From Campylobacterales bacterium (GTDB lineage: Bacteria > Campylobacterota > Campylobacteria > Campylobacterales > JALSKU01): a stretch of DNA of 46,689 bases. Below, one piece after another: positions 1,148 through 45,424 of the stretch. The stretch covers positions 1-46,689 of the forward strand of contig JALVXV010000116.1 in the NCBI GenBank assembly GCA_027038235.1, read 5' to 3'. The notes under the pieces are model-generated. The model had not been told where the DNA came from. It saw only the letters and a program-made list of their open reading frames with translations, and did not search any database. Within the stretch, counting starts at the first letter, position 1. Each line of letters opens with the position of its first letter. Position numbers and translations under genes: made by a program.

Positions 1148-1204
1148 CCCTTTGCTCCTTTAATATGGTTTAGGATCAAGAAACTAAATCCTAAATCCTA
1201 AATC

Positions 1205-1828
1205 CTAAAACCTTATCTCTAAAATATTTCTTAAATCCTTCTCATCTATTACATGAGTTGCCTCTTTTTTTAGTATCTCATTTGCACAAAAGGCTACTTT
1301 TATTTTTGCATATTTAAACATTGAGAGATCATTAGCCCCATCACCTACTACCATGCAATCCTCTGGTGAGATTTGTAAAATACTTTGCAATCTTTTTAGC
1401 ATATCACCCTTGCTAAAGTTAAACATCATATCTCCGCCAACCTCTCCTGTTAGCACCCCATTTTTTTCATGCAATATGTTTGAAAAAGAGGCTTCATATC
1501 CTAAAATATCCTTTGCATAATCAGTAGCATTTCTAAAACCACCGCTAAATACTACAACCTTTAGCCCTCTTTTTTTCAACTCTTTTATACTCTCTTTTGC
1601 TCCATTTACAAAAGGGAGATTGTGGCAAATCTCATCAACCTTTTCTCTTTTTAGCCCCTTTAATAAAGCTACTCTTTGAATAAGACTCTCAAAAAAATCA
1701 AGCTCCCCTGCCATAGCTCTTTTTGTAATAGAAGAGACCCTATCCTCTATACCAAGCTCTTTAGCTAAAAAATCTATAGTCTCTCCATCCATTAGTGTAG
1801 AGTCAAAGTCAAACACACATAGTTTCAT
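1205..1828 (-). CDS. serB: phosphoserine phosphatase (HAD superfamily)
   Basis: HAD motif I is present in MKLCVFDFDSTLMDGE, and GDGANDL lies near the C-terminus. I moved the start to ATG 1828 because the 16 extra codons in the track (MELRAFLALSLIRRIF) are read-through of the heptamer array. An AAGGA Shine-Dalgarno sequence precedes the ATG. Confidence 0.8.
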   Translation of the reverse strand: MKLCVFDFDSTLMDGETIDFLAKELGIEDRVSSITKRAMAGELDFFESLIQRVALLKGLKREKVDEICHNLPFVNGAKESIKELKKRGLKVVVFSGGFRNATDYAKDILGYEASFSNILHEKNGVLTGEVGGDMMFNFSKGDMLKRLQSILQISPEDCMVVGDGANDLSMFKYAKIKVAFCANEILKKEATHVIDEKDLRNILEIRF

Positions 1829-1892
1829 AAAAATCCTTCGTATAAGGCTAAGAGCTAAAAATGCTCTAAGCTCCAAGCTCTAAGCTTATATA

Positions 1893-1901
1893 TGCTATAA
1901 T
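1893..1901 (+). promoter_or_regulatory. candidate extended -10 promoter element TGCTATAAT for the metF-like gene
   Basis: An exact TGnTATAAT lies 30 nt upstream of ATG 1932 in the divergent serB/metF spacer. Confidence 0.4.
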
Positions 1902-1931
1902 ACTAAAAAATATTTAATAACTGGATTAAAG

Positions 1932-2849
1932 ATGGTAGAAAGCTTTATAAAGAGGTTGTATAGTGATAGTTTTTTAAGCTTAGAAGTTACACCTCCTCAT
2001 GCACCTTCGTTGGATAATATCATAGAGGATATAAAAAGATACAGATTAGATAAAATAGTCGATGGCTTTAGCACGACAGATAATCCTCTTGCTAGATTGA
2101 AGTATGATTCTATGTTTTCAGCTTTAAAGATACAACAAACATTTAAAAAAGCATGTATTACTACAATGAGCATGAGAGATAGAAATAAAATAGCTCTCCA
2201 ATCAGACCTCCTTGGCATGAATGACTTTGATCTAAGAGTTGTTTTAGCTCTTACAGGAGATCCAGCAAGATCAAGCGACCAGCCAAACACAAAGGCTGTC
2301 AATGAGGGAAGAAGTACACTTTTACTTGATATGATAAAGTGTTTTAATTCTGGTATTGATTATGCTGGAAAACCATTTAAAATCGCACCAAAAAAGATAT
2401 TTCCTTTTGCAGTGAGCAATGCCTATGCAAAAAATAGTAAAACTTTGTATAGAAATATGCTAAAAAAGCTCTCTAGTGGAGCAAATGCTATCATAACCCA
2501 GCCTGTTTATGATAAAGAGAATGCAAAAATGCTTTTGCAAATTTTTGAAGATGCAAAGAGAGATACCCAATTTTTAGAGAATGACCCTGTTTTGATACTT
2601 GGATTCTTTCCTATAACTAGACTTAGAACTGCACAATTTTTAAACTCTCATGTACCAGGTATTTATGTGCCTACCTATTGGATGGAAAAGCTATTAAAAG
2701 CAAAAGAGATCTCACCTCAAAAGGAGTTTGAAGAGGGGATAGAGCTAAGCAAAAAGACATTTGGTGAAATTTACAATACAAACAAAAAGGTACATCTAAT
2801 GTCAGCTAACCATTTTGAGATCATAAAAGAGGTAGTAGAAAGTTTTTAA
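1932..2849 (+). CDS. metF: methylenetetrahydrofolate reductase family protein
   Basis: The MTHFR-like pattern is present: LEVTPP..., LALTGDP and ITQPVYD. Length is 305 aa. Confidence 0.65.
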   Translation: MVESFIKRLYSDSFLSLEVTPPHAPSLDNIIEDIKRYRLDKIVDGFSTTDNPLARLKYDSMFSALKIQQTFKKACITTMSMRDRNKIALQSDLLGMNDFDLRVVLALTGDPARSSDQPNTKAVNEGRSTLLLDMIKCFNSGIDYAGKPFKIAPKKIFPFAVSNAYAKNSKTLYRNMLKKLSSGANAIITQPVYDKENAKMLLQIFEDAKRDTQFLENDPVLILGFFPITRLRTAQFLNSHVPGIYVPTYWMEKLLKAKEISPQKEFEEGIELSKKTFGEIYNTNKKVHLMSANHFEIIKEVVESF

Positions 2850-3004
2850 TAGTTGCTAAACTTTCAAAATAAAGCCTAGCAACCACCTATCTAAATCCAA
2901 AAAAATTTCGACCTAATGCCAACTTTCAACTTTTTTAAAAAACTCAAATCTTTAGGCATAAGTAGTACTACAACAAACTCTATTGCAAAATTTGGGCTAA
3001 AAAG

Positions 3005-3511
3005 TTAAAAATCCCTTTTCAATAAAGCATTGACATTTAAAATAGTTATGATACTATCTTCCATCTTTCCAATACCAAAGATCATGTTGTTGCTATTTTC
3101 ATCTTTATTAAAGGTCTCTGGAGGAGTTTCTATATCAGACTGATTTATTCTAATAGCCTTTGTAAGTCTATCGATAACAAATCCTGCCTCATTATTTTCT
3201 GTCTTTATTACAATATATCTGGTCTCCTCATTTTGAGATACTGATGGAAGTCCAAATTTTCTTCTAAGATCTATCAAAGGCAAAATACTCCCTCTTAGAT
3301 TGAAAACTCCCAACACATAATCAGGCACACTAGGAACCTTTGTGCACTCTATTGGTTTTATAATCTCTTGAATATTTAAAATAGGAACAGCCAACTCCTC
3401 ATTGCCGACTATAAAGCCGACAAGTTGCATTATATCTTCACTCTCTTTTTTATCATCACTATTTTGTTGCTTTTGTTGCTTTTGCAAAATTGATTTTAAC
3501 TTTTCACTCAT
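3005..3511 (-). CDS. cheW: chemotaxis coupling protein CheW
   Basis: A 168-aa single CheW-like domain sits immediately downstream of cheA, with a 3-nt gap. Confidence 0.9.
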   Translation of the reverse strand: MSEKLKSILQKQQKQQNSDDKKESEDIMQLVGFIVGNEELAVPILNIQEIIKPIECTKVPSVPDYVLGVFNLRGSILPLIDLRRKFGLPSVSQNEETRYIVIKTENNEAGFVIDRLTKAIRINQSDIETPPETFNKDENSNNMIFGIGKMEDSIITILNVNALLKRDF

Positions 3512-3514
3512 TTT

Positions 3515-7556: not shown

Positions 7557-8562
7557 AAGCAATAGTAGGTATTCCTAAATCTTCTTCAAAGCCACTCATT
7601 ATATTGGCATTGACTACTGCTGCTGAGGATGAGCCTTTTAAGATATTATCTATGGTTGAACAGATATATAAATTTGAGTTAGATTTTTTAGCAAATATAT
7701 CACAAAAATTTGTCCCACCAACACCCTTTATAGTAACAGGCTTATCAAAAACTCTTATAAATTTCTCATCTTTGTAAAACTCTTTTAAATATTCTAAAGG
7801 ATCAATATCCTCTTTTAATTTGCAATAAATATCACACATTTCTCCTCTAATTAGTGGCAAAAGATGAGGAACAAAATTTATATCATACTCTACTCCTTTA
7901 GAGATGATTTTCATCTTCTCTTTTATCTCAGGCTCATGTCTATGGCTTAGAGGGTTATAAGCAGATACATTTTCATCTATAAAGACAAAGTGAGTTTTAT
8001 CACTACACTTTTTACCAGCTCCACTAACTCCACTTTTTGCATCGATAAATATAGGATAACTCTCATCAATGTATTTACAAAATGGTAAAAGACCAAGCAG
8101 GGTAGCTGTAGGATAACACCCTGGATTGGCTACAAGTTTTGCTCTTTTAATATCATCTCTAAAAAACTCTGGAAGTCCATAAACTGCCCTACTTAAGTGC
8201 TCTTTATCTTGATGAGTGCAGTAATACCTCTCATAAGTTTCAAGTTCAAGTCTATAATCAGCTGAAAGATCTACTACCTTTACACCAAGATCAAGTAACT
8301 CTTTTGCAAAACCCATAGCACTCTTGTGAGGCAGAGCTAAAAATGCTAAACTAGCACACTTAGCTATCTCTTTAGCATCACCTTTTTTTATATCTATATC
8401 AACAACACTCTTTAAAGCAGGATAGAGTTCACTTAAACTCATTCCACCTTCACTATTGGCAACATACTTTAGCCTAAAGTTTGGATGATTTATAATGATC
8501 TTTATAAGTTCAAGCCCAGTAAATCCACTAGCACCTACAATTGCAACATCTATCTTTTTCAT
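7546..8562 (-). CDS. argC: N-acetyl-gamma-glutamyl-phosphate reductase
   Basis: There is a GASGFTG Rossmann loop and the catalytic Cys motif ANPGCYPT. Length is 338 aa. Confidence 0.9.
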   Translation of the reverse strand: MKKIDVAIVGASGFTGLELIKIIINHPNFRLKYVANSEGGMSLSELYPALKSVVDIDIKKGDAKEIAKCASLAFLALPHKSAMGFAKELLDLGVKVVDLSADYRLELETYERYYCTHQDKEHLSRAVYGLPEFFRDDIKRAKLVANPGCYPTATLLGLLPFCKYIDESYPIFIDAKSGVSGAGKKCSDKTHFVFIDENVSAYNPLSHRHEPEIKEKMKIISKGVEYDINFVPHLLPLIRGEMCDIYCKLKEDIDPLEYLKEFYKDEKFIRVFDKPVTIKGVGGTNFCDIFAKKSNSNLYICSTIDNILKGSSSAAVVNANIMSGFEEDLGIPTIAYVP

Positions 8563-9029
8563 GCTTTTATCTCCACTATTTCATACTCTTTTGTACCATT
8601 TGGGAGTTTTATTGTTACCTCATCGCCCTCCTCTTTTCCAAGAAGTTGCTTTGTAAGTGGAGAGTTGTATGATATAAGCCCATTTTCAGGTGAACTTTCA
8701 TAACTTCCTACTATCTTATAGGTTATCTCCTCACCACTATCTAAGTCCTCCAAAGTTATGGTTGATCCAAATCTAACCTTATCATGATGATAACTTTTTG
8801 GATCTACTACTTGAGTTTTAGCAAGATAGTTACTAAGTTCATAAATTCTCGCCTCTATAAAAGCTAGTCTCTCTTTTGCAGCATGATACTCTGCATTTTC
8901 CTTTAGGTCTCCATGACTTCTTGCAATATCTATCTCTTTGACTGTTTGCGGTCTTTGAACCTTTTGAAGATCTTGAACTTCAGCTAATAGTTTATCATAT
9001 CCCTCTTGTGTTATTGGTTCCTTTTTCAA
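8559..9029 (-). CDS. greA: transcription elongation factor GreA
   Basis: The 156-aa protein has the GreA coiled-coil and C-terminal domain pattern. It uses a TTG start preceded by AGGAG. Confidence 0.9.
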   Translation of the reverse strand: MKKEPITQEGYDKLLAEVQDLQKVQRPQTVKEIDIARSHGDLKENAEYHAAKERLAFIEARIYELSNYLAKTQVVDPKSYHHDKVRFGSTITLEDLDSGEEITYKIVGSYESSPENGLISYNSPLTKQLLGKEEGDEVTIKLPNGTKEYEIVEIKA

Positions 9030-9046
9030 ATAATTCTCCTATATTT

Positions 9047-9095
9047 GTGATTAGTGATTCGTAATTCGTAATTCGTGATTAGTGATTGATAATTT
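9047..9095. repeat. class C heptamer array, 7 units (GTGATTA GTGATTC GTAATTC GTAATTC GTGATTA GTGATTG ATAATTT)
   Basis: Read directly from the sequence in the lpxB-greA spacer. Confidence 0.95.
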
Positions 9096-9098
9096 ATT

Positions 9099-9129
9099 CT
9101 AAACCCTAAAATCTAAATCCTAAATCCTA
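9099..9129. repeat. class A heptamer array (CTAAACC CTAAAAT CTAAATC CTAAATC CTA)
   Basis: Read directly from the sequence. It abuts the class C array and lies 8 nt from the lpxB stop. Confidence 0.95.
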
Positions 9130-9137
9130 TAGTGTAA

Positions 9138-10166: not shown

Positions 10167-10187
10167 ATATTTTTACTCTCCTATTAA

Positions 10188-10215
10188 CTAAACCTAAATC
10201 CTCAACCCTAATTTT
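10188..10215. repeat. degenerate class A heptamer array (CTAAACC TAAATCC TCAACCC TAATTTT)
   Basis: Read directly from the sequence in the divergent lpxB/surE spacer. Confidence 0.7.
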
Positions 10216-10225
10216 ATCTCTATTT

Positions 10226-10234
10226 TGCTATAAT
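10226..10234 (+). promoter_or_regulatory. candidate extended -10 element TGCTATAAT upstream of surE
   Basis: This is the same 9-mer as at 1893-1901. It ends 1 nt before the ATG at 10236. If it is functional, surE more likely starts at GTG 10257 (VRKEILITNDDG). Confidence 0.4.
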
Positions 10235-10235
10235 T

Positions 10236-11680: not shown

Positions 11681-12100
11681 CTTTATCATTTTATTTATAT
11701 CTTTTCTAAATATATAGGTATATCTTCTTCCTCTATAAAACAAATCCCCCTTAAATGCTGTTTTGCCAACTTTAAAGGAGAGACTATCTCTTTTAAAAAG
11801 AAGTTCACCTAGATTTTTACCAATAGGTTTATAAAATGTACTAAGAGATAAAAATATTAAGACTATATAGATATATGCAAACAATTTTAGTCTCTTTTTG
11901 CTTGATATAAAGTATCCAAAAATGATAGATAAAACAAAGAGTGCAATATAGGGCTGATTATCCACAAATAGCGGATTGTAATATACTTTTATATTGTAAA
12001 TATCTATATAATTTATCTTAATACCTATAAAAAGTAAAAAATCCAATAGTAGTACAAAGATAAGTCCCAATAAAAAGGAGCTAATGACTTTTGATATCAT
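11648..12100 (-). CDS. hypothetical integral membrane protein
   Basis: The 150-aa protein has 3-4 hydrophobic helices. It is translationally coupled to the upstream gene by a 4-nt overlap. Confidence 0.6.
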   Translation of the reverse strand: MISKVISSFLLGLIFVLLLDFLLFIGIKINYIDIYNIKVYYNPLFVDNQPYIALFVLSIIFGYFISSKKRLKLFAYIYIVLIFLSLSTFYKPIGKNLGELLFKRDSLSFKVGKTAFKGDLFYRGRRYTYIFRKDINKMIKLPNNDLLYSK

Positions 12101-12603
12101 CTTAACCTCCTTATACTTTTTTTGCCTATCTTGATAATTGATGACGCACTATCTGCTCTAAACTCATCTGCTTCAAAGAGTATTATATCAACTCTATCTT
12201 TAATGTAACCAAAATCAAACTCACACCCTGTCTTATTGGCTGAAGTTGAATACATCCATCCAAATCGCTTTAAAAAGCTTTGATGGGGAGCATCTTGAAC
12301 TACCCTAATAGCTTTTAGATTTGGATATATAAAAGTTGTCTTTTTTTTTCTTCTTAAAAATTTTTTAAATCTTTTAGGAACTCTTGTCTCTTTTTTCAAC
12401 TCACAAAATGTAGCTATGCTCTTTAAAAAGGGCTGCTTTATATCTCTTTGCTTGATAAGAGACAATTTTTTTTTCTCTTTTGAAAGAAGACCCACAGTAG
12501 TATCAGTTTGGACAAGAAAAACGAGGTTTGTGATTCGTAATTCGTGATTCGTGATTGGTTGAAAGTCATCGATTTTTATTTCTTCAATTACCATTCTATT
12601 CAC
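12097..12603 (-). CDS. YrdC/Sua5-family protein (threonylcarbamoyl-AMP synthase-like)
   Basis: The QTDTTVGLLS signature is present. The N-terminal 25-28 codons (..PITNHELRITN) are encoded by a heptamer array. Only GTG 12603 or ATG 12594 can serve as a start. Confidence 0.7.
   Translation of the reverse strand: MNRMVIEEIKIDDFQPITNHELRITNLVFLVQTDTTVGLLSKEKKKLSLIKQRDIKQPFLKSIATFCELKKETRVPKRFKKFLRRKKKTTFIYPNLKAIRVVQDAPHQSFLKRFGWMYSTSANKTGCEFDFGYIKDRVDIILFEADEFRADSASSIIKIGKKSIRRLR
12530..12558. repeat. class C heptamer array (GTGATTC GTAATTC GTGATTC GTGATTG G) lying inside the 5' end of the YrdC-like ORF
   Basis: Read directly from the sequence. It is inverted relative to 12604-12654. Confidence 0.95.
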
Positions 12604-12654
12604 TATTCACGAATCACTAATCACTAATCACTAATCACTAATTACGAATCACTA
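12604..12654. repeat. class C heptamer array, opposite orientation, 7 units (TATTCAC GAATCAC TAATCACx3 TAATTAC GAATCAC TA)
   Basis: Read directly from the sequence. The carB stop codon (12652-12654) lies inside the last unit. Confidence 0.95.
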
Positions 12655-15600
12655 CCCAAGATACTCTTGCAATGCTTTTGGATAAAATATATCACTCTCT
12701 TGCAACTCTTTTATAGCCTCTATAGCTACTTTAGCTGCAGCAATAGTGGTAAAATATGGAATATTCAATTTGATAACCTCTCTTCTTATATCTCTTGCAT
12801 CACTTTTGCTAGATTTGTTATCACTAGTATTTATCATAAGAGCTATTTCACTATTTTTCATCTTATCTTGTATATTTGGTCTTCCCTCACTTATCTTATA
12901 TACAAACTCTGCTTTTACTCCAGCATTTTTAAGAGTCTTATGTGTTCCACCCGTTGCAACTATCTTAAATCCAAGATCCTCAAATCCTTTGCCTATCTCT
13001 GCAGCAAACTCTTTATCTATATCACTCAATGAGATGAAAACTACACCCTTAGTAGGCAAGATATTGCCACTACTAAATTGACCTTTTGCAAATGATTTAG
13101 CAAAATTTTCACTAATTCCCATAACTTCACCAGTTGATTTCATCTCAGGCCCAAGTAGCAAATCTGCTCCAGTTAGCTTATTGAAAGGAAAGACTGCCTC
13201 TTTTACACTTATATGCTTTTTTATGTGGGGTTTATAGATACCATGCTCTTTATAAACAATATTATTTTTATCATAAAATTTTAAAGCACTTACCAAATCG
13301 CCCTCAAACATAACCTTTGTAGCAACCTTTGCTAAAGGTATTCCAGTAGCTTTACTTACAAATGGTACAGTTCTGCTTGCTCTTGGATTTACCTCTATGA
13401 TATAAACCTCATTTTTATATACAGCAAACTGGATATTTAAAAGTCCGACAACTCCAAGTCCTAAAGCTATATCTTTTGTCTGTTTTTCAACCTTTAAAAG
13501 TATATCTTTGCCCAAACTAATAGGCGGTAATGAACAAGAGCTATCTCCACTATGAACTCCAGCCTCTTCGATATGTTGCATGATAGCACCAATATATACA
13601 TCTTTTTTATCACTTATTGCATCTACATCTATCTCAATAGCACGATCTAAAAACTTATCAAGTAAAACAGGTGAATCATTACTAACACTTACTGCTTCAT
13701 TCATATATGTTTTTAATTCATCTTCAGAGTAAACTATCCTCATAGCTCTTCCACCAAGTACATAGCTTGGTCTAACAAGTACAGGATAGCCTATCTCTTT
13801 AGCTTTTGATAGAGCCTCCTCTTTGGTAGTAGCTGTATCATTTTTGGGCTGCTTTAAGTTGTGCTTTTTAGCAAAATTTGAAAACTTCTCTCTATCTTCA
13901 GCTATATCTATCACTTTTGCACTTGTTCCTATGATATTTGCCCCAATAGATGTCAACTTTTTTGCAAGTTTCAAAGGTGTCTGCCCTCCAAAATGCACTA
14001 TTATGCCATCAGGGTTTTCTTTTTCAATAACTGCTCTTACTCTTTCAAAATCTATAGGCTCAAAGTAGAGTATATCACTTGTATCATAATCAGTCGAAAC
14101 TGTTTCAGGGTTGCAGTTATACATAATGGTAGTAACACCCATATCCTTTAGAGCAAATGCAGCATGAACACAACAATAATCAAACTCAATTCCTTGACCT
14201 ATTCTATTTGGGCCACCACCCAAAATCAAAACTCTCTTTCTAACATCACTGGTCGCTGGTCGCTGGTCGCTGGTCGCTATTATAGGGGTTGTTGAGTAAA
14301 GATATGGAGTTAGGGCTTTAAACTCTGCTGCACAAGTATCTACCTCATTATATATTTGTCCAATATCAAACTTTACTCTAGCATTTCTAATATCATTTTC
14401 TGTGATACCTATATTATCCCTTTTATTGATAAGTTTTGCTATCATAGCATCGCTAAAGCCATCACACTTTACTCTTCGTAAGAGTATCTTATTTTGTAAA
14501 ATATCTACATCTATCTCTTTTTCTATCCTTACAATCTCTTCTATTTGATACAAAAACCATCTATCTATCTTTGTAAGATTATATACTTCATCTATACTCA
14601 TACCCTCTCTAAAGGCTTGGGCGATATAAAGTACTCTATTTTCATTTGCTCTTCTTAACTCCTTTATTATCCTCTCTTTATCACCACTATCAATCTCTTC
14701 AAAGCCCTCAAGCCCTGTTTCTAAAGAGCATAGTGCCTTTTGGATAGACTCTTTAAAAGTTACCCCTATAGCCATAGCTTCACCAACACTCTTCATAGAA
14801 GTTCCAAGAGTTGAGTTAGCTTGTGGAAATTTCTCAAAGGTAAATCTTGGCATCTTTGTAACTATATAGTCGATAGTAGGTTCAAAACTAGCAGTTGTAC
14901 CTATGATGTCATTTTGTATCTCATCAAGAGTATATCCTACTGCTAAATAGGTTGCTACCTTTGCTATTGGATAGCCTGTTGCTTTACTAGCTAATGCTGA
15001 ACTTCTGCTTACTCTTGGGTTCATCTCTATGACAGTCATTCTACCATTTTTTGGATTGATAGCAAATTGGACATTACTACCTCCTGTATCAACCCCTATC
15101 TCTCGCAAAATTGCAAAAGAGGCATCTCTAATGGCTTGATACTCTTTATCTGTTAGAGTTAGAGCTGGTGCCACAGTGATACTATCGCCTGTATGTACAC
15201 CCATAGGATCAAAATTTTCAATAGAGCATACAATAATGCAGTTATCATTTCTATCTCTAATGACCTCCATCTCATACTCTTTCCAGCCTAAAAGTGATTC
15301 TTCAATTAAGATTTCACCAATAGGACTCTCCTCAAGAGCATGTTTTGCTAAAGATTTAAACTCATCAATATTGTATGCTACTCCACTTCCACCACCAGCA
15401 AGAGTGTATGAAGCTCTAATAATAAGAGGAAAACCTATCTCATTAGCAGCCTTTAATGCTTCATCCATATCATATGCATATCTACTTTTTGGCAAATCCA
15501 TACCAATTTTGATCATCGCCTCTTTAAAGGCTTGTCTATCCTCACCCTTTCTTATAGCCTCTGGATTTGCTCCTAAAAATTCAACACCCTCTAACATGCC

Positions 15601-15915: not shown

Positions 15916-15937
15916 CTTGTGTTATCCTTATTTGGAA

Positions 15938-16035
15938 AGCTTAGGGCTAAGAGTTAATGGCTTAGAGCTTATATAGCTTACACTTTTTATTGCAAGTTTT
16001 TAGCTCTTAGCTCTAAGCTCTTAGCTCTAAGCTTA
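15938..16035. repeat. class B inverted heptamer arrays (AAGCTTA GGGCTAA GAGTTAA TGGCTTA GAGCTTA ... loop ... TAGCTCT TAGCTCT AAGCTCT TAGCTCT AAGCTTA)
   Basis: Read directly from the sequence. The arrays fill the mreC-carB spacer, and the right arm ends 2 nt from the mreC stop. Confidence 0.95.
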
Positions 16036-16037
16036 TC

Positions 16038-17817: not shown

Positions 17818-17823
17818 TTACCC

Positions 17824-19063: not shown

Positions 19064-19147
19064 GGCTAAGAGCTGAGAGCTTAGGGCTAAGAGCTAGAAA
19101 AGCTCTAAATACTCGGCTCTTGGCTCTTGGCTCTTGGCTCTTGGCTA
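19064..19147. repeat. class B inverted heptamer arrays (GGCTAAGAGCTGAGAGCTTAGGGCTAAGAGCTA - AGAAA - AGCTCTAAATACTC (GGCTCTT)x4 GGCTA)
   Basis: Read directly from the sequence. The central hairpin is a perfect AGAGCT/AGCTCT. The element fills the lpxA-clpX spacer. Confidence 0.95.
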
Positions 19148-20413: not shown

Positions 20414-21496
20414 TCAAAAAATTACTAAATTTTCCCTAATACTATCATAGTAGATAGCATCAAGATATAATTCAAAGGCTTTAAAATTGATATCATCTAC
20501 AACAATAATAGGCGATAAAGAGTAAAAATTACCCTCTAAAAAGTTTCTAAACTTTATCTCATCTTCTACCAAAGGGGGATGAAAAATAAGCTCTTTCGTA
20601 TTTTTATATGATAATTTTGTAGCTTTATTAAAGTACTCAATACTTACAAATTTTATACTATCTCTATTGGCATAATAGATACCTCCAATAGCTTTTTCAA
20701 CTCTTAATTTAACCCTTTTTCTTTTCATATATGAGTAAAAGATGGGGTATGATGGTATAACCTTTTTATCAACTTTTAAATAGGATCTCAAAACTCTATA
20801 GTTTAAAAATAGATCTTTTACAATATCATAGTTTTTGCCTACCTCTTCTAATTTGACTCTTTTTTGATAAAGATCTATCCTCTGCTCTATAGAGTTTGGT
20901 TGAATCTGATTTGCAATATTTACAAAAAGTTCATCTGCTACTCTTTTTTGAAACTCTCTTTGCTTTTTCAAAGCATAGATACACCCACAATAGTTTTGAT
21001 GATAAAGTTTATCCTTTTTTGCCAATAAAAATTGCTCATTTGTACCACCATTTTTCCTAAGATCAATACTTACAAACTCTATATTATACTTTTTTGCAAG
21101 TTTTTTTCCTACAGTTGTTAACTGTTCTATAGATTTTTTAGGGCTAGTTAAAAGTGTTGTAGTAACCTTATTGATTCCTAACTCCTTTGCTTTTTTCATG
21201 CTAACTTCTACTCTATTATCAAAGCAAAGAGTACATCTTTTGCCCTTTTCAGGTTCATTTTCATAGCCTCTAACTTTATCAAGCCACCCCTTTATATCAT
21301 ACTCCCCCTCTATAAGCTCAATATCAAGCATTTTACAACTTCTTTTTACATCAAGAAGTCTAAGATAGTATTCGCTATATGGGTGGATATTAGGATCATA
21401 AAAAAAGGCTATAAAGCTCTCTTTGGGATAAAGCTTTTTTAATTTTTGCAAGAAAAAATGGCTATCAACTGAGCAACAGATATGAACTAGCATCAT
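20414..21496 (-). CDS. queH: epoxyqueuosine reductase QueH (DUF208) with about 175-aa C-terminal extension
   Basis: The first roughly 185 aa carry the HICC.., CTLCF and YCGCIY cysteine motifs. The remainder has no motif I recognise. Confidence 0.7.
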
Positions 21497-21497
21497 T

Positions 21498-21575
21498 GGG
21501 ATTTAGGATTTAGGTTTTTAGGATTGAGACTAGAATAAACCACTTCTAAATCCTCAATCCAAATCCCAAATCCTA
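21498..21575. repeat. class A inverted heptamer arrays (GGGATTTA GGATTTA GGTTTTT AGGATTGAG - loop - CTAAATC CTCAATC CAAATCC CAAATCC TA)
   Basis: Read directly from the sequence. The bcp stop codon forms the last 3 nt of the right arm. The queH ATG is 1 nt from the left arm. Confidence 0.95.
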
Positions 21576-22037
21576 TCTTAGCTCCTCTAATTTCTCTTTG
21601 ACAGCTTGGACATGTCCTTTTACTTTTACTTTATCCCACCTATAAGCGACCTTTCCATTTGGATCTATCAAATATGTAGTTCTAACTACCCCCATATACT
21701 CTCTTCCGCACATCTTCTTAAGTTGCCATACTCCATACTCTTGCAATACTTTTTTATCTTCATCACTTAAAAGTGTAATTTTAAGAGCTTTTTTCTCTAT
21801 AAAGTTTCTATGCTTTTTTGGACTATCAGGACTTATACCAAGTATCACTGCATCTAACTCTTCAAAAGCTGGTAAATTTTGGGTAAAATCACATGCCTCA
21901 GTAGTACATCCAGGGGTATTATCTTTTGGATAAAAGTATAAGACTACCCACTTTCCTTTAAAATCTCTAAGACATATATCAACTTCATCTTGATTTGGCA
22001 GACAAAAATCCTTTGCCATATCTGCTATCTCTATCAT
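21573..22037 (-). CDS. bcp: thiol peroxidase, Bcp/PrxQ type
   Basis: The peroxidatic Cys motif YPKDNTPGCTTEAC is present. Length is 154 aa. Confidence 0.9.
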   Translation of the reverse strand: MIEIADMAKDFCLPNQDEVDICLRDFKGKWVVLYFYPKDNTPGCTTEACDFTQNLPAFEELDAVILGISPDSPKKHRNFIEKKALKITLLSDEDKKVLQEYGVWQLKKMCGREYMGVVRTTYLIDPNGKVAYRWDKVKVKGHVQAVKEKLEELR

Positions 22038-25059: not shown

Positions 25060-25974
25060 ATGGAAAAAGCAAAATATATATGGATGGATAGAGAGCTTAT
25101 CCCTTGGGATAAGGCAAATGTTCATATACTTACTCATACACTCCACTATGGAAATGGGGTATTTGAAGGAACTAGAGCATATCAGACAGAAGATGGATTG
25201 GCGATATTTAGGTTGCAAGATCATACAAAAAGACTTTTAAACTCTGCAAAAATCACCATGATAGAGCCTCCATACACTCAAAAGGAGCTTGAGGATGCTC
25301 AAATTGAACTACTTAGAGCAAATGATTTTAAATCAAATGTTTATTTGAGACCTTTAATTTATCTTGGATATGGAGTGATGGGACTTTATCACATCAATGC
25401 TCCTGTCAATGTAGCTATTGCCGCTTGGGAGTGGGGTAGCTATCTTGGAGATGAGGGGCTTGAAAATGGCATAAGAGTAAAGATAAGCTCTTTTGCAAGA
25501 AACTCAGTCAAATCAACAATGGGTAAAGCAAAAGCAGTAGCAAACTATCTAAACTCTCAAATGGCAAAATTTGAGGCGATTGATTGTGGATATGAAGAGG
25601 CACTTTTATTAGATGATGAGGGATTTATTGCTGAAGGTAGCGGAGAGTGCTTTTTTATAGTTAAAGATGGTGTGCTTATAACTCCACCAAATGATAACTC
25701 ACTTGAATCTATAACCCAAGATACCGTCTTAAAACTTGCACAAGACTTTGATATACCAATTCAAAGAAGAAGAATTACTAGAGATGAAGTTTTTGTAGCA
25801 GATGAGGCCTTTTTTACAGGAACTGCAGCAGAGCTTACACCAGTAAAAGAGGTAGATGCTAGAGTTATAGGCAATGGTAAAAGAGGAGAGATAACAAAAA
25901 AATTACAAGATGCATACTTTGATGTAGTCTATGGAAGAGATGAAAAATATAGATATATGCTAACATATATATAA
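25060..25974 (+). CDS. ilvE: branched-chain amino acid aminotransferase
   Basis: The 304-aa protein has the class IV aminotransferase pattern (..YGNGVFEGTRAY.., EGSGECFF). Confidence 0.9.
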   Translation: MEKAKYIWMDRELIPWDKANVHILTHTLHYGNGVFEGTRAYQTEDGLAIFRLQDHTKRLLNSAKITMIEPPYTQKELEDAQIELLRANDFKSNVYLRPLIYLGYGVMGLYHINAPVNVAIAAWEWGSYLGDEGLENGIRVKISSFARNSVKSTMGKAKAVANYLNSQMAKFEAIDCGYEEALLLDDEGFIAEGSGECFFIVKDGVLITPPNDNSLESITQDTVLKLAQDFDIPIQRRRITRDEVFVADEAFFTGTAAELTPVKEVDARVIGNGKRGEITKKLQDAYFDVVYGRDEKYRYMLTYI

Positions 25975-25994
25975 GCTGAGAGCTGAGAGCTTTA
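25974..25994. repeat. class B heptamer array (AGCTGAG AGCTGAG AGCTTTA)
   Basis: Read directly from the sequence. It starts on the last base of the ilvE TAA stop. Confidence 0.85.
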
Positions 25995-28304: not shown

Positions 28305-28844
28305 ATGACCTATTTTACCATACTACATTGGATAACACTATTAATTTTTTTACTACTATTTGTATTACTTGTTATTATCTCAAAAAAAGAGAGCAATCCA
28401 AAAATATTTTGGTCAATGGTTTTCTCCTCTTTTTTAGTAACTAGTATGCTTGCAATTTTCTCTATGTTTGTACTAGATAAATATACAAAAAAGGGTAAAC
28501 TTATCAATATAACTCACAAAAGAGTACTTTTAAATGAGACTATTGTCTTTTTTGGTCAAGTTCAAAATATTGGAAGATTTAAGATAGGCAGATGTAAACT
28601 CGAAGTAAAAATTGCAAATAATGCACTCAATTTAAATAATATAACCGGCAAAACTTTTTATGCTCCTCGCTCTGGTCTTGGTTCACTCTTTACAAATAAA
28701 AAAGAGAGGCCATCTACAGTTGTTGAGGATTTTGTTATAGCAAAAGATTTAAATCCAGGTGAAGTTAGAAACTTTAGTGCAACTATGCCATACCCTCCAT
28801 ATTTTCAAAAAGCAGACATAAGATATAAGCTTTATTGCCATTGA
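28305..28844 (+). CDS. hypothetical two-TM membrane protein (paralog of the previous gene)
   Basis: The blocks VLDKYTKK..VQNIGRFKIGRCKLEVKI and a C-terminal YCH match the previous gene. The stop codon TGA is the first triplet of a class C array. Confidence 0.6.
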   Translation: MTYFTILHWITLLIFLLLFVLLVIISKKESNPKIFWSMVFSSFLVTSMLAIFSMFVLDKYTKKGKLINITHKRVLLNETIVFFGQVQNIGRFKIGRCKLEVKIANNALNLNNITGKTFYAPRSGLGSLFTNKKERPSTVVEDFVIAKDLNPGEVRNFSATMPYPPYFQKADIRYKLYCH

Positions 28845-28862
28845 TTAGTGATTAGTGATTGG
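28842..28862. repeat. class C heptamer array (TGATTAG TGATTAG TGATTGG)
   Basis: Read directly from the sequence. It starts with the TGA stop of the upstream gene. Confidence 0.9.
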
Positions 28863-28886
28863 TAAACTTATCTTAGCCTTAAATCC

Positions 28887-38243: not shown

Positions 38244-38268
38244 CTTTTATCCTCTTTGTTTTTTAAAA

Positions 38269-38317
38269 AGCTAAGAGCCAAAAAAGCACTCAGCTCTAAG
38301 CTCTAAGCTCTAAGCCC
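38269..38317. repeat. class B heptamer arrays (AGCTAAGAGCC - loop - CAGCTCT AAGCTCT AAGCTCT AAGCCC)
   Basis: Read directly from the sequence. The last six codons and the TAG stop of the aminotransferase gene lie inside the right arm. Confidence 0.95.
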
Positions 38318-39516
38318 TTTCTAAGATACTGCTTTATATTTCTAGCAGCTTGTCTTATTCGATTGTGATTTTCGATGAGTGCTATTCTTACATACTCATC
38401 TCCATGCTCTCCAAAACCAATACCCGGACTAACTGCCACTTTTGCCTCTTTTAAAAGTTGCTTTGAAAACTCCATACTTCCAAGCTCTCTTAAAGGCTCT
38501 GGGATTTTAGCCCATACAAACATAGTGGCATTTGGTTTTTCTATATGCCAATTTGCATTTGCAAAACTTTTTATCAAAACATCTCGTCTGCTTTTGTAGA
38601 TTTGAGTGATCTCTTTGACACAATCTTGAGGAGCATTTAGTGCAACAGTAGCAGCTACTTGAATAGGGGTAAACATTCCATAATCAAACCAACTTTTTAT
38701 CTTTTGTAAAGCTCCTATTAGTTTTGGATTGCCTACTACAAAGCCTACTCTCCATCCAGCCATATTGTAGCTTTTGCTTAGTGTAAAGCTCTCAACTGCT
38801 ACCTCTTTTGCACCCTCTACCTCAAAAATAGAAGGGGTCTTATATCCATCATAGGTCAAATCAGCATAAGCTATATCGCTAAGTATATAAAATCTCTCCC
38901 TTTTAGCAATTTCAACCAATCTCTCATAAAAATCCTTTTTCACAGTTACAGTTGTTGGATTGTGAGGAAAGTTAACTACTAAAAACTTTGGCTTTGGCAT
39001 TGATTCTTCTATACTATGCTTTAAACTTTCAAAAAATTTATCATAATCAAGCTCATACTTTTTATTATAAAAAAAGGGCATTTTTACAACATTACCACCA
39101 GCTATTATAAAAGCATGAGTATGTATAGGATAGGCTGGTTCTGGCACTATGGCTACATCTCCTGGGTTGGTAATAGCTTGAATGAGATGAACATACCCCT
39201 CTTTGCTACCCATAGTGGCTACTGCTTCTGTTTCAGGATCAAAAATAGCTCCATATCTCTTCTCATACCAATTGGTTATAGCAAGACGAAGTTTATATAT
39301 GCCTTTGCTTACAGAGTAGCCATAATTTTTAGGTTTTTGGGCAGCCTCTATCAATTTTTCAACTATATGAGGAGGTGTAGGACCATCTGGATTGCCCATA
39401 GAGAAGTCTATGATATCCTCTCCAGCTCTTCTAGCTTTCATCTTTATCTCATTTATTTCAGCAAAAACATAATTTGGAAGTCTATTTATGGCATTAAATT
39501 GAATCTCTTCAAACAT
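38296..39516 (-). CDS. alaC: PLP-dependent aminotransferase, AlaC/YfdZ-like
   Basis: The N-terminus INRLPNYVFAEINEIKMKARRAGEDIIDFSMGNPDGPTPPHIVEKL closely matches what I recall of the E. coli YfdZ/AlaC N-terminus. Confidence 0.65.
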   Translation of the reverse strand: MFEEIQFNAINRLPNYVFAEINEIKMKARRAGEDIIDFSMGNPDGPTPPHIVEKLIEAAQKPKNYGYSVSKGIYKLRLAITNWYEKRYGAIFDPETEAVATMGSKEGYVHLIQAITNPGDVAIVPEPAYPIHTHAFIIAGGNVVKMPFFYNKKYELDYDKFFESLKHSIEESMPKPKFLVVNFPHNPTTVTVKKDFYERLVEIAKRERFYILSDIAYADLTYDGYKTPSIFEVEGAKEVAVESFTLSKSYNMAGWRVGFVVGNPKLIGALQKIKSWFDYGMFTPIQVAATVALNAPQDCVKEITQIYKSRRDVLIKSFANANWHIEKPNATMFVWAKIPEPLRELGSMEFSKQLLKEAKVAVSPGIGFGEHGDEYVRIALIENHNRIRQAARNIKQYLRKGLELRA

Positions 39517-42008: not shown

Positions 42009-42112
42009 CGTAACTTGTGATTTGTAAATAATAATTTATAATATTTTAAACTCTTCACAACAAATCACGAATCACGAATCACTAATCACGAATCACTAAT
42101 CACTAATCACGA
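42009..42112. repeat. class C inverted heptamer arrays (CGTAACTTGTGATTTGT - AT-rich loop - ACAAATCACG then 7 units AATCACG/AATCACT)
   Basis: Read directly from the sequence. The last 5 codons and the TAG stop of rsmI are encoded by the right arm. Confidence 0.95.
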
Positions 42113-42911
42113 GTTGTTCATATATCTCTTTTATGCTTTTGCCACTTATTTTGCTTAAAAGTTTTGCTTTTTGTTTTTTTGGAATTTCCAAAGAGATGAT
42201 ATCATTTTGAGTTATATTTGATACCTCTTTTTTTTCACCCTTGATTATGACTACCCACTCCCCTTTTGTATTCTCTTTTTCAAAAATTTTAGCAAGATTT
42301 AAAGCACTATCTTTATACCATTTTTGATGAAGTTTAGTGATCTCTTTTTGTACAAAAAGCTCTCTTTTAGGAGATAAGATTGCTATCTCATTTAAAAGTT
42401 GCCTTATCCTATGGGGAGCCTCATAGAGTATAGTGTTGTAGCTACCATTTAATATATCATTTAAAAGCAATTTTCTCTCTTTGGCTTTATGTGGCAAAAA
42501 TCCAAAAAATAAAAACTCTTTTTGTATAAATCCACTTGCCGCATAAGCTGTAACTGCAGCATTTGCACCAGGCAAAACTTCATACTCTATATCATGCTCT
42601 TGAGCAAATTGTATGAGTTTTGCTCCAGGATCACTAATACAAGGCATTCCAGCATCGCTTAGATATACAACACTCTTTTTAAATATATCTATATCAATAT
42701 TTTTTAGAAAACTATCCTCATTGTGGGAGTGCAAAGAGTAAAATTTCTCTATATTGCATTTAATAGAAAATCTCTCACCAAGAAGAGTTAAAAGCCTTTT
42801 TGTAACTCTTGTATCTTCACAAAAAAGTATATCAGCAGTTGAAAGAACTTCTAAAGCTCTAAAAGTTATATCTTGTATATTACCTATAGGGGTTGGAATA
42901 AGATAAAGCAT
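42096..42911 (-). CDS. rsmI: 16S rRNA (cytidine1402-2'-O)-methyltransferase
   Basis: The tetrapyrrole-methylase-fold N-terminus MLYLIPTPIGN..DIT.RALEVL is present. Length is 271 aa. Confidence 0.85.
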   Translation of the reverse strand: MLYLIPTPIGNIQDITFRALEVLSTADILFCEDTRVTKRLLTLLGERFSIKCNIEKFYSLHSHNEDSFLKNIDIDIFKKSVVYLSDAGMPCISDPGAKLIQFAQEHDIEYEVLPGANAAVTAYAASGFIQKEFLFFGFLPHKAKERKLLLNDILNGSYNTILYEAPHRIRQLLNEIAILSPKRELFVQKEITKLHQKWYKDSALNLAKIFEKENTKGEWVVIIKGEKKEVSNITQNDIISLEIPKKQKAKLLSKISGKSIKEIYEQLVISD

Positions 42912-42916
42912 AATTT

Positions 42917-42934
42917 AGGAGCTAAAAAGCTCCT
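42917..42934 (-). terminator. short hairpin AGGAGC-TAAAAA-GCTCCT between rpmE and rsmI (weak terminator candidate)
   Basis: The stem is a perfect 6 bp. There is no clear U-tract. Confidence 0.25.
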
Positions 42935-42944
42935 TTGGAAGTTT

Positions 42945-43145
42945 TTATTTTAAGTTATATTTTTTCTTAAATTTTTCAACTCTACCTGTTGCATCGACTA
43001 TCTTTTCACTGCCTGTAAAAAATGGATGGCAGACATTGCATATATCTATCCTTATCTCCTGTTTATTTGACATAGTAGTAAAGCTATTTCCACATGCACA
43101 AGTAACATTACACTCAACATACTCTGGATGAATACCCTTTTTCAT
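42945..43145 (-). CDS. rpmE: 50S ribosomal protein L31
   Basis: The 66-aa protein begins MKKGIHPEY and has the C-x-C ... C-x2-C zinc-type motif. Confidence 0.95.
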
Positions 43146-43180
43146 TTCAATATTCCTTTAACTATTTTTTCCTCTGAAGT

Positions 43181-43215
43181 AAAAATGCAACAGACCCTCT
43201 AAAAGAGTCTGCTGC
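43181..43215 (-). terminator. Rho-independent terminator candidate downstream of the 43263-43676 gene
   Basis: The minus-strand RNA reads GCAGCAGAC-loop-GUCUGUUGC. This is a 9-bp stem with one G-U pair plus an inner CUCU/AGAG pairing, followed by AUUUUUA. Confidence 0.55.
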
Positions 43216-43262
43216 TATATAGGGGAGGGGAAGTGTAATTATATCAAAATAAATTTACAAAA

Positions 43263-43869: not shown

Positions 43870-44604
43870 ATGAAAAGAAGCGGTTTTACAATGATAGAGC
43901 TTATTTTTGTTATTGTTATCATAGGAATATTGGCTGCTACTGCACTACCAAAATTTAATGGAGTAAAGGATAGAGCTAAAGTAAATAGCGAATTATCTGC
44001 TTTGGATGGCTTAAATACAGCTATAGTTGTAGAACAAGAGGGTAGATATGATGATTATGGTGATACTGAAGTAAATTGGTATAATTTGCCTGAAGATGAT
44101 GTAAATGGTACCAATATCAAGACAAAATCAGCTAGAGTAGCACTATATAAAAGAGTTAATGATGAAAATAAAGTATTGTCAAAAATTGCTAAAAAAGTAA
44201 ACTCACTAAAGATACAAGGTTTTTCACCTCTAAAAAGTGATGGTACTACAAGTTTTTATGCCCCACTCTACTATGATCCTGTGGTAATTACAGGAAAAGC
44301 TAGTGATCCAATAATTGGTGTAAAATATCCTACAGATCATGATGGTGATGATATACCAGGAAAACCTGATAAAAACGACTTTTGGGTATTTAATCCTTCA
44401 CCTTTTGATTTAGAAATTTATAATAATGATGGCAACAATGTAAATACTGTAACAATAGAATCTGGCACTATAGGTTTAGTTGATGTAAATGGAACAAAAC
44501 CGACAGTATTTTATAATTCTAATGGGATTAGCAAGATCTATTTTAGAGTCAAATCAGGAGATAGCATACTCTCATCACATAGATTTTATGGTATAGACAA
44601 CTAA
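43870..44604 (+). CDS. type IV pilin / pseudopilin-like protein with prepilin N-terminal methylation motif
   Basis: The N-terminus MKRSG|FTMIELIFVIVIIGILAA shows G at -1, F at +1 and E at +5. Length is 244 aa. Confidence 0.85.
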   Translation: MKRSGFTMIELIFVIVIIGILAATALPKFNGVKDRAKVNSELSALDGLNTAIVVEQEGRYDDYGDTEVNWYNLPEDDVNGTNIKTKSARVALYKRVNDENKVLSKIAKKVNSLKIQGFSPLKSDGTTSFYAPLYYDPVVITGKASDPIIGVKYPTDHDGDDIPGKPDKNDFWVFNPSPFDLEIYNNDGNNVNTVTIESGTIGLVDVNGTKPTVFYNSNGISKIYFRVKSGDSILSSHRFYGIDN

Positions 44605-44607
44605 ACG

Positions 44608-45219
44608 ATGAATAGATCAGCCTTTACAATGATAGAGCTTATTTTTGTCATTGTTATCATAGGGATACTAGCCTCTATGGCACTACCTAAATTTGCAGGA
44701 ATAAATGATAGAGCAAAGAAGGCTGCTGAGGTTGCAACTATGTCAGCAGTTGCAACTGCAATAGATGGAGCTCATGGAGAGTGGAGTATCAACGAGGGGG
44801 ATTTTGTATGGGGAAACAATCAAGATAGCAATACCCATCCACTAAATAGTGTAGGATACCCCGATGATCTATCTGCAAATGGACAAACTTTTGGGGCTCT
44901 TTTAAGATCTGCAACAAATGCAGATAAATTTAAAAAGGTTTTTGATAAAAACAGTAGTGATTTTACATTCTCTATATTTACAGGACCTGCTTCTAATGCT
45001 GTAAATGGTGCAAATTATGATAGAGATGCTAAAAATAGCGACATTCCAGGAAAGCCTGATAAGAATGATTATTGGATCTATATCTCATATGCAAACCCAA
45101 ATAAAACTTGCAAAGAGCTATACAGTAACAAAGTAGTTCACTCAGGAGATTTGATTCTTATAGATGTAGATGGAGTAACTTTAACAAAATATAGTGATAT
45201 ATCCATAACCTGCAACTAA
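44608..45219 (+). CDS. type IV pilin / pseudopilin-like protein (paralog), Ala at -1, C-terminal Cys pair
   Basis: The N-terminus is MNRSA|FTMIELIFVIVIIGILAS. It shares DIPGKPDKND[FY]W and L[VI]DV[ND]G blocks with the upstream gene. C-terminal cysteines occur at KTC...ITCN. Confidence 0.85.
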   Translation: MNRSAFTMIELIFVIVIIGILASMALPKFAGINDRAKKAAEVATMSAVATAIDGAHGEWSINEGDFVWGNNQDSNTHPLNSVGYPDDLSANGQTFGALLRSATNADKFKKVFDKNSSDFTFSIFTGPASNAVNGANYDRDAKNSDIPGKPDKNDYWIYISYANPNKTCKELYSNKVVHSGDLILIDVDGVTLTKYSDISITCN

Positions 45220-45244
45220 TCTAACAAAAATTACCACTCAAAAA

Positions 45245-45270
45245 ATTAAGGGGTCGGGGCTAAACTTTTA
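45245..45270 (+). repeat. 26-bp direct repeat copy 1 (ATTAAGGGGTCGGGGCTAAACTTTTA)
   Basis: It matches 46114-46139 at 25 of 26 positions. The core is GC-rich in an AT-rich context. Confidence 0.9.
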
Positions 45271-45362
45271 ACTTTTATCACAAAATTGCATTAGATATAA
45301 GAGCTAGCTTTCAAATATAAAAATATTTTTGATACAATAAACAAAAAAGAGTATGTAGAGTA

Positions 45363-45400
45363 TATTTCAAAGGTAGCTTAGTGGAGTTATCTTTGAAATA
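45363..45400. other. perfect 10-bp inverted repeat TATTTCAAAG-N18-CTTTGAAATA
   Basis: Read directly from the sequence. It is followed immediately by a class B heptamer array. Confidence 0.8.
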
Positions 45401-45402
45401 CA

Positions 45403-45424
45403 AAGCTCTAAGCTCTTAGCTTTT
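45403..45424. repeat. class B heptamer array (AAGCTCT AAGCTCT TAGCTTT)
   Basis: Read directly from the sequence. It lies 16 nt upstream of ATG 45440. Confidence 0.85.

Follow-up and report, generated by a model that had tools for sequence, protein, structure and literature searches.

A 46,689-nucleotide stretch of DNA from an uncultured member of the Campylobacterota (contig JALVXV010000116.1, assembly GCA_027038235.1; the whole stretch is referred to here as the window) carries tandem arrays with a 7-nt period at many of its gene boundaries, raising the question of what these arrays are and how they came to lie there. An initial annotation, made from the letters of the window, described them as dispersed arrays of three sequence families, mostly paired as hairpins and placed with a fixed polarity, and knew of no described element with this architecture. 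The arrays are heptanucleotide simple sequence repeats (SSRs), comparable to the STRR (short tandemly repeated repetitive) sequences of cyanobacteria, that occur in a new lineage and do not constitute a new class of element. Heptanucleotide repeats have been reported in bacteria since 1990 and are still without a demonstrated function. The present lineage is a favorable comparative system for them, as it includes relatives without repeats, relatives with a single-copy precursor and relatives with different amplified units at one junction. The origin, turnover, and cost of heptamer repeats can be read directly by comparing these relatives.

The host of the window is known from hydrothermal-vent metagenomes and is AT-rich (32% GC). 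Its nearest species genomes, at about 72% CarB identity, are those of Sulfuricurvum, Sulfurimonas, and a Nautiliaceae metagenome-assembled genome (MAG), and metagenomes contain a distinct clade comprising about 25 clusters of LpxA with 73-90% identity.

Period-7 arrays in intergenic spacers

When the window was scanned for period-7 repeats with Tandem Repeats Finder (TRF) and also read directly, arrays were found at essentially every locus claimed earlier, with TRF scores of 31-93. A strict scan counted 12 period-7 arrays, compared to a mean of 0.1 and a maximum of 1 in 100 order-3 Markov simulations of the window, and the same scan at control periods of 8-11 returned 0-1 arrays. The excess over composition-matched sequence is therefore real, and the arrays behave as long SSRs, a category of head-to-tail units of 5-11 nt in runs longer than expected by chance. 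A second scan used the units GGATTTA (class A), AAGAGCT (class B), and GTGATTM (class C) as 14-mers with at most two mismatches. It recovered all loci of the initial list and added a class A array at 719-737 that the list lacks, as it also lacks a further array within carB (14249-14278). Each unit occurs at about 5-7 loci within 47 kb (class A at six, class B at six, class C at five), so that, as in STRR-bearing genomes, several heptanucleotide families are each dispersed at many loci of one genome.

Placement is far from uniform. Although 92.6% of the window is coding, all unit-scan matches of at least 18 nt lie in or against intergenic spacers, with the single exception of 12525-12560, previously counted among the spacers, which is located inside a predicted yrdC-like open reading frame (ORF). 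Lag-7 autocorrelation reaches at least 0.49 in 9 of the 11 co-directional spacers longer than 30 nt, while 385 coding windows average 0.28 with a maximum of 0.46. None of the five divergent or three convergent spacers attains 0.49 (the best convergent value is 0.47), and in this small sample the arrays are thus enriched between co-oriented ORFs and depleted between divergent ones. Array length centers on about 4.3 units (median of 16 window arrays). The same arrays are present in at least six independently assembled contigs (L001-L004, L314-L316); identical arrays in independent metagenome assemblies indicate that they are no assembly artefact. ARAGORN found no tRNA or transfer-messenger RNA in the window, and Rfam at the gathering threshold gave no match over the whole window on either strand.

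Polarity and stop codons

At all eight paired co-directional loci, as well as at a non-pairing hybrid locus (9042-9132), the order is upstream stop codon, G-rich array, C-rich array, and downstream start. The initial annotation took this order as a polarity in the sense of the flanking genes. The order itself stands, but an inverted repeat made of a G-rich and a C-rich arm reads identically on its reverse complement, and its appearance on both gene strands is consequently automatic and carries no gene-sense polarity. A non-trivial rule does exist: the G-rich strand has its 5' end against the nearest ORF, irrespective of how that ORF is oriented, lying after the stop if it is the coding strand and upstream of a start if it is the non-coding strand. 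What is not automatic is that the reverse order is never seen and that each arm follows the rule by itself. It holds for the eight paired co-directional loci and for the hybrid locus, and three single arrays (25974, 28839, and 45403) follow it as well; at the first two of these single arrays the G-rich strand is the coding strand and begins right at the stop. A stop codon lies inside, or at most 3 nt from, the G-rich 5' arm at 9 of 10 loci. The arithmetic offered earlier is also correct, in that three or more copies of a 7-nt unit containing a stop codon place stops in all three frames.

Freedom of the C-rich arms from stop codons offers only a partial explanation of this rule, as AATCACT, AGCTCTW, and TAAATCC all contain stop codons. 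Shine-Dalgarno mimicry by the G-rich units beyond their purine richness is not supported, the GAUCACCUCCUUA duplex energy lying at the 7th-67th percentile of composition-matched permutations.

Recent gain and turnover at orthologous junctions

Eight syntenic contigs within the set L205-L213, from relatives whose LpxA is 73-90% identical, were compared with the window, and all preserve the gene order bcp-queH-fabZ-lpxA-clpX-mreB-mreC-carB-yrdC. Four junctions that bear hairpins in the window measure 0-25 nt or overlap in L207, L208, and L213, as most of them also do in L206 and L211. A heptamer hairpin of 50-120 nt occupies these four junctions only in the window, L205, and L209. Given the short junctions of syntenic relatives, the arrays are recent insertions into tight operon junctions, and their absence from the relatives' junctions means that the operons do not need them.

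Two junctions point to the material from which the arrays grew. Between carB and yrdC, L211 has a single-copy inverted repeat, CGTGATTGG ... CCAATCACG, around the yrdC ATG; in the window the L211 unit is amplified to eight and four copies. At the same junction L205 carries TAGTGAG and CTACCCG, and L206 carries GAGATAG and CTACCCA. Between bcp and queH, a single-copy hairpin is again present in L211, GAAGGTW and CCTTCAT in L205 and L209, ATTTCAA in L212, and class A units in the window. Read together, these sequence comparisons show that the hairpin came first and that amplification in 7-nt steps from a local single-copy hairpin or inverted repeat followed. Complementarity between arms is kept while the units differ between lineages.

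Whole-unit changes in copy number are found between related genomes, a behavior characteristic of long SSRs. Strain L002 is without two units (14 nt) in the arm at 12596-12658, and the AGCCAAG copies between lpxA and clpX number five in the window and two in L205. Units also become more alike: L002 has two unit-homogenizing substitutions in 12525-12560, and L316 has one substitution that makes the units of the hairpin at 1844..1886 more similar.

Two further features of these junctions were observed. The queH gene (20414-21496; spacer 21497-21572) lacks a Shine-Dalgarno sequence, as do its counterparts in L205, L209, and L211, and in the short-spacer relatives queH has a purine-rich ribosome-binding site. 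In L212 (LpxA 78% identity), the mreC-carB junction (13862-14144) contains a 270-nt spacer with a perfect 25-nt terminal inverted repeat, CTTACGCATTAAACATATATCTGAG ... CTCAGATATATGTTTAATGCGTAAG, whose left end overlaps the mreC stop. From its sequence, this spacer looks like an insertion of the miniature inverted-repeat transposable element (MITE) type, at a junction where other lineages have heptamer hairpins.

Intrusion into coding sequence

The repeats are not confined to spacers, and the process that creates them rewrites protein ends and a linker. A perfect array of a fourth unit, AGCGACC in the gene sense (CTGGTCG), repeated 4.3 times at 14249..14278 on the minus strand, encodes part of the hypervariable inter-domain linker of CarB near codon 546 (carB 12652-15915, minus strand). 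At about the same codon other lineages carry CCTTCAA or CCATCAA (L205) and AGCAACC (L208), and both the length and the sequence of the linker differ among members of the clade. The C-terminal CarB tails of L205 and L206 are translated arrays (EIVRSE, RDGRRDRR).

The yrdC-like gene (12097-12594) has its start codon and first 12 codons within a hairpin loop, and the 3' arm is translated. The arm in question, a class C array at 12525..12560 on the plus strand, corresponds approximately to residues 12-23 of an N-terminal extension, with the Pfam domain beginning at residue 26. It pairs with a class C arm of 8.4 copies at 12596..12658 on the minus strand, which contains the carB stop codon, leaving the yrdC-like ATG (12594) in the loop. 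The extension is about 20 residues long and includes the C-rich arm in all hairpin-bearing lineages and in no others; in relatives without the hairpin, YrdC-like proteins are 145-149 residues long and start overlapping the carB stop. The presence of arrays inside coding sequence is better accommodated by a mutational process filtered by constraint than by a site-specific functional element.

Folding of the inverted pairs

The description of the loci as imperfect hairpins built from microsatellites holds for the paired arrays, but a strong hairpin (z of -3 to -8, on both strands) is predicted at only about 7 of 14 loci. No strong fold was predicted for 9030-9137, 10167-10235, 25975-26014, 28842-28886, or 45380-45439. 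The typical stem has six base pairs and one mismatch per unit, which indicates that each arm was homogenized separately. Loops and flanks are unrelated among loci of one class; two class B loci share the hairpin tip AGAGCTARAAAWGCTCT, and no core is common to all class B loci. A scan of 8500-26500 for intrinsic terminators returned seven sites, with 7.7 expected and none at an array, in line with the earlier remark that no U-tracts follow the hairpins.

A plain hairpin, GGAGC-UUUUU-GCUCC, lies at 42917-42936 between rpmE and the rsmI-like gene and resembles the class B tips at 1851 (AGAGCTAAAAATGCTCT) and 19090 (AGAGCTAGAAAAGCTCT). It may represent an unamplified seed.

Distribution beyond the lineage

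A metagenome scan with three class C units returned at least 120 stretches, 80 of which were taken as loci L085-L164. Among the matches listed, to which the following counts for unrelated contigs also refer, L085-L164 range from 31% to 71% GC and derive from soil, sediment, gut, and water, and several also bear arrays of the AAATCCC, AATCCCT, or AATCCCC type. In unrelated contigs, 52 of 92 class C arrays have the end of an ORF (100 codons or longer) at the 5' end of their G-rich strand, compared to 16 of 92 for the C-rich strand. Where class C arrays form close inverted pairs, the G-rich arm comes first in 13 cases and second in none. All three classes are also found in viral contigs (L268-L313). 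Some AAATCCY arrays lie in many copies at the ends of viral contigs.

A scan of species genomes based on carB reached only relatives of at most 72% identity, and it therefore informs distribution and not orthology. Among those genomes only the Nautiliaceae MAG (L010) bears arrays, with other units, and its arrays, like those of L205, comprise 4.1-4.7 units. In this MAG, GAGAATT is repeated 4.6 times at 2614-2645, starting 3 nt after a stop codon, and ATTTTCC is repeated 4.4 times at 9936-9966, 35 nt upstream of carB; both follow the G-rich-strand orientation rule. No array was found in the carB region of Helicobacter pylori (L016). With a third phylum and unrelated metagenome and viral contigs now showing the placement rule, a general cause, whether mutational or functional, is worth testing.

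Relation to described heptamer repeats

The initial statement that no described element has this architecture does not hold, and at the level of kind the arrays belong to an already described repeat family. Dispersed heptamer SSRs have been reported for Xanthomonas (GGGAATC) and Nostoc (GGGGA(C/T)T), where they are over-represented in non-coding DNA, favor spacers between co-oriented genes and avoid divergent ones (Rehm et al., 2015; PMC4692102). The G-rich-strand placement rule and the overlap with stop codons were already described for these repeats, as were inverted pairs able to form stem-loops and the variation of copy number and sequence among close relatives (PMC4692102). They have a mode of four units, ascribed in both genera to G-quadruplex formation, are not linked to mobile elements, and have no identified function (PMC4692102). 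The window arrays share their dispersal, placement rule, inverted pairs, copy-number variation, and mode of about four units. They differ in that GGATTTA, AAGAGCT, and GTGATTM have no tracts of three or more G and hence no quadruplex potential, in their AT-rich campylobacterotal host, in the predominance of inverted pairs, and in their entry into coding sequence. A mode of about four units among units without G-tracts weakens the published G-quadruplex rationale.

The resemblance to STRR sequences lies in the three dispersed heptanucleotide families of one genome and in the intergenic hairpins between genes. The STRR units are CCCCAGT, TTGGTCA, and CAACAGT. Their 7-bp repeats form hairpins between the co-transcribed hupS and hupL, for which roles in transcript stability, translational coupling, or termination have been proposed (PMC2670836). 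Three heptamer families have likewise been noted in Calothrix (Mazel et al., 1990, as cited by Rehm et al., 2015). STRR sequences were defined as specific to heterocystous cyanobacteria; the window differs from them in its units and in its host, a Campylobacterota MAG. The part of the STRR account considered here (PMC2670836) contains no comparative evidence of recent gain, in contrast to the window lineage.

Within the same phylum, the class C unit GTGATTA has been cited for H. pylori (van Belkum et al., 1999, as cited by Rehm et al., 2015), and it enters the present comparison as that single cited example; beyond this citation, nothing was found in the literature on heptamer repeats in Nautiliales or Campylobacterota. 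According to a summary in PMC4679880, many genomes have heptamers as their commonest long SSR (Mrazek et al., 2007). TAACTGA repeats, common to marine Beggiatoaceae, cyanobacteria, and Bacteroidetes, place one heptamer at many intergenic sites in sets of 2-6 copies, and a post-transcriptional role has been suggested for them (MacGregor, 2015; PMC4679880). Like the window arrays they reuse a heptamer at many intergenic sites and are shared across distant phyla; unlike them they consist of one unit instead of three, are almost all direct (one indirect among 170 sets), lie just upstream of starts, and form no hairpins. Slippage has been proposed before for heptamer repeats (PMC4692102; PMC4679880).

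Other known structures resemble the arrays less. A clustered regularly interspaced short palindromic repeat (CRISPR) array was correctly set aside from the outset, as the 7-nt units run head-to-tail without spacers and are not repeats of 23-50 nt separated by unique spacers of comparable size. The likeness of class A to the plant telomere unit is coincidental, as the unit is TTTAGGA and not TTTAGGG, and the arrays lie between housekeeping genes. The repetitive extragenic palindromic (REP) sequences and bacterial interspersed mosaic elements (BIMEs) of enterobacteria are imperfect palindromes that are intergenic and often located within operons after stops. REPs have a family consensus, are not built from short tandem units, and are linked to REP-associated tyrosine transposases (RAYTs). 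Neither a consensus body, upon comparison of loci and junctions, nor a RAYT link, among the genes of the window, is seen here, and filled and empty junctions reveal no fixed element ends or target-site duplication. The window also lacks a transposase, and the earlier judgment that the architecture is not that of REP/BIME or MITE elements is upheld.

Relative to these published accounts, the comparison adds the recent gain of arrays, unit turnover at orthologous junctions, copy-number differences between strains of this lineage, the intrusion into coding sequence, the polarity of class C arrays in unrelated contigs, and a single-copy precursor hairpin in one relative.

Origin of the arrays and competing explanations

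The best reading of the arrays is that they are slippage-amplified heptanucleotide SSRs, of the STRR or long-SSR kind, at operon junctions, and this is probably, though not securely, correct. In one sub-lineage of vent Campylobacterota, short sequences already present at tight junctions, especially small inverted repeats, were amplified 7 nt at a time, for which replication slippage would be the simplest mechanism. Each arm was then homogenized independently to yield an imperfect palindrome, the 5' base of which holds or abuts the upstream stop while the 3' base adjoins or encloses the downstream start. Arrays persist only under weak coding constraint, namely in intergenic DNA, in the first or last residues of proteins, and in a hypervariable linker. 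Such an insertion may be tolerated as it can fold on itself, keeping the stop and the next start side by side in the transcript. A terminating ribosome would open the stem base beside the downstream start, as in the classical mechanism of translational coupling, and thereby preserve that coupling, a proposal that fits queH, where no Shine-Dalgarno sequence stands between arm and ATG. As for orientation, the stop-rich G-rich strand would leave the ORF first and quickly end the upstream frame. Rho prefers C-rich, G-poor untranslated RNA. In the order observed, the C-rich, G-poor arm would never be naked RNA before its partner has been transcribed, and Rho loading would be avoided. These roles are offered as proposals for the function of the arrays.

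Several observations weigh against slippage-driven amplification as a full account. The five loci without a strong predicted fold are single arrays or non-complementary pairs. Stability is greater on the sense strand at ten loci and on the antisense strand at seven, and the lpxA-clpX junction folds with far greater stability in antisense (-55.7 compared to -34.3 kcal/mol). Local amplification from varied seeds explains neither why three units dominate nor, among the matches listed, the recurrence of GTGATTN in contigs of 31-71% GC, and some unit preference or exchange between loci is left unexplained. In addition, the maintenance of pairing while units change needs selection for pairing or templating, and describing the arrays as near-neutral may be too weak.

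This last point leads to the alternatives in which the hairpin itself is selected. The arrays could be intercistronic RNA elements similar to REP/BIME, serving as stabilizers, processing sites, or U-tract-independent terminators, with the repeats incidental. The strong folds at half of the loci, the pairing kept at one junction while the arms change in four lineages, and the position within operons directly after stops are all consistent with this, as are the like roles proposed for STRR hairpins (PMC2670836). Nevertheless it is rather improbable, as hairpins are missing from the same junctions in close relatives whose gene order is identical, roughly one locus in three is a single array unable to fold, the same repeats occur inside coding sequence, no terminator-like tails follow the stems, and neither folding stability nor G-U pairing favors the mRNA strand. 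A further reading, which is unlikely, would make the hairpins a functional punctuation device at operon junctions shared across phyla. The G-first, C-second order would then reflect a need for transcription and folding to proceed in that sequence, hiding the C-rich RNA from Rho and letting termination of one cistron license initiation of the next at a single stem base. Selection, and not slippage with its by-products, would in that case account for the 7-nt unit, for the mode of about four units, and for the single mismatch in each unit. The basis of this reading is the invariant order of the arms, which the window shares with Xanthomonas, with Nostoc, and, among the matches listed, with all 13 unrelated GTGATTN pairs.

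Explanations that look to the repeat unit or to mobility fare less well. HutP recognizes UAG triplets separated from one another by four bases. In the window, many of the G-rich units have the form UAGNNNN (UAGGAUU, UAGUGAU, UAGAGCU), UAG being found in all three classes and in the units of L205 and L206, and the strict period and typical array of about 4.3 copies would suit an oligomeric protein that binds nucleic acid and recognizes a motif at 7-nt intervals; regulator binding has also been proposed for TAACTGA repeats (MacGregor, 2015; PMC4679880). Such binding arrays are nonetheless very improbable given that units differ between loci and between orthologous junctions, that GTGATTC, AGCCAAG, AGCTGAG, and GAGAATT have no UAG, that the arrays are dispensable in relatives, that complementarity to the anti-Shine-Dalgarno sequence is no better than in composition-matched permutations, and that no candidate protein was identified. 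Equally doubtful is the notion that small mobile elements insert at gene ends and that they make up three non-autonomous families of a MITE-like or REP/RAYT-like kind. It would account for the reuse of three units at many loci, the tip common to two class B loci, the unamplified GGAGC-loop-GCUCC hairpin after rpmE, and the same units in viral contigs, but it would predict a conserved body, terminal inverted repeats, or target-site duplications, none of which appear when filled and empty junctions are compared. Loops and flanks without relationship inside a class, the derivation of orthologous-site units from local sequence (L211 compared to the window), and the absence of a transposase from the window argue in the same direction. 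Formation of G-quadruplexes, as proposed for GGGAATC and GGGGAYT, would fit the shared placement rule and the similar mode of about four units, yet it is hardly credible here, where no unit contains three consecutive G and classes B and C have isolated G only.

Individual loci along the window

The remaining loci are given in order of position, with strand where one was assigned. The class A array at 719..737 (plus strand, GATTTAG repeated 2.5 times), found by the unit scan, has the C-rich orientation in the sense of the minus-strand genes and lies between the stop of a methylase fragment (746) and an ORF6N gene. A class A hairpin follows the HAD-phosphatase (serB-like) gene at 1168..1215 (minus strand; supported by TRF, reading, and folding), in which GGATTTA repeated 4.3 times on the minus strand includes the serB-like stop codon and the partner arm is short (1168-1178). 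The divergent spacer at 1844..1886 holds a class B hairpin with a G-rich arm (1844-1861), the tip AGAGCTAAAAATGCTCT, and a C-rich arm (1863-1886).

The hybrid locus at 9042-9132 combines a class C half and a class A half that are unable to pair. The class C array (9042..9090, plus strand, GTGATTM repeated 6.4 times) is the C-rich arm in the gene sense, beside the greA ribosome-binding site, and the class A array (9096..9132, minus strand, 4.4 copies) is the G-rich arm in the gene sense, after the lpxB stop. A degenerate class A array in the divergent lpxB/surE spacer (10189..10211, minus strand) has neither a partner arm nor a predicted fold. Between mreC and carB, the class B hairpin at 15938..16034 consists of a degenerate arm (15938-15980) and a near-perfect G-rich array (15995-16034) directly after the mreC stop in the gene sense. 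The class B hairpin between lpxA and clpX (19064..19146) has the tip AGAGCTAGAAAAGCTCT at 19090 and an arm (19115-19146) of AGCCAAG repeated 4.6 times in the gene sense, 3 nt past the lpxA stop. In the class A hairpin between bcp and queH (21495..21576), the stem has the bcp stop at its 5' base, and the C-rich arm finishes 7 nt before the queH ATG.

Further along, a single class B-like array (25974..25992, plus strand, AGCTGAG repeated 2.6 times) starts on the final base of the ilvE stop codon. The coding strand is its G-rich strand, and it lacks a partner arm. A single class C array (28839..28865, plus strand, TGATTAG repeated 2.7 times) provides the TGA stop of a DUF2393 gene in a convergent spacer, the opposite strand of which carries single class A and class B units after the purF stop. 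The class B locus after a class I/II aminotransferase gene (38265..38319) has a short partner arm (38265-38283), and its GAGCTTA array, 4.6 copies in the gene sense, encodes the final residues GLELRA and the stop codon. Similarly, GTGATTM repeated 7.1 times in the gene sense encodes VISD and the stop codon at the class C locus after the rsmI-like gene (42009..42115), where the partner arm (42009-42030) is degenerate. A single class B array at 45403..45426 (minus strand), C-rich on the coding strand, lies 13 nt upstream of an ATG at 45440.

Some neighboring genes are also of note. An apparent 351-nt spacer (42912-43262) contains a 66-residue rpmE (L31) at 42945-43145. At the other end of the window, an ORF6N-domain gene (3-743, minus strand) runs off the window end and is preceded by a 133-residue ORF (746-1147, minus strand) whose match to an EcoRI-type adenine methyltransferase is limited to the C-terminal third (profile positions 223-345 of 345). 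Together they look like a restriction-modification or mobile-element remnant downstream of the serB-like gene.

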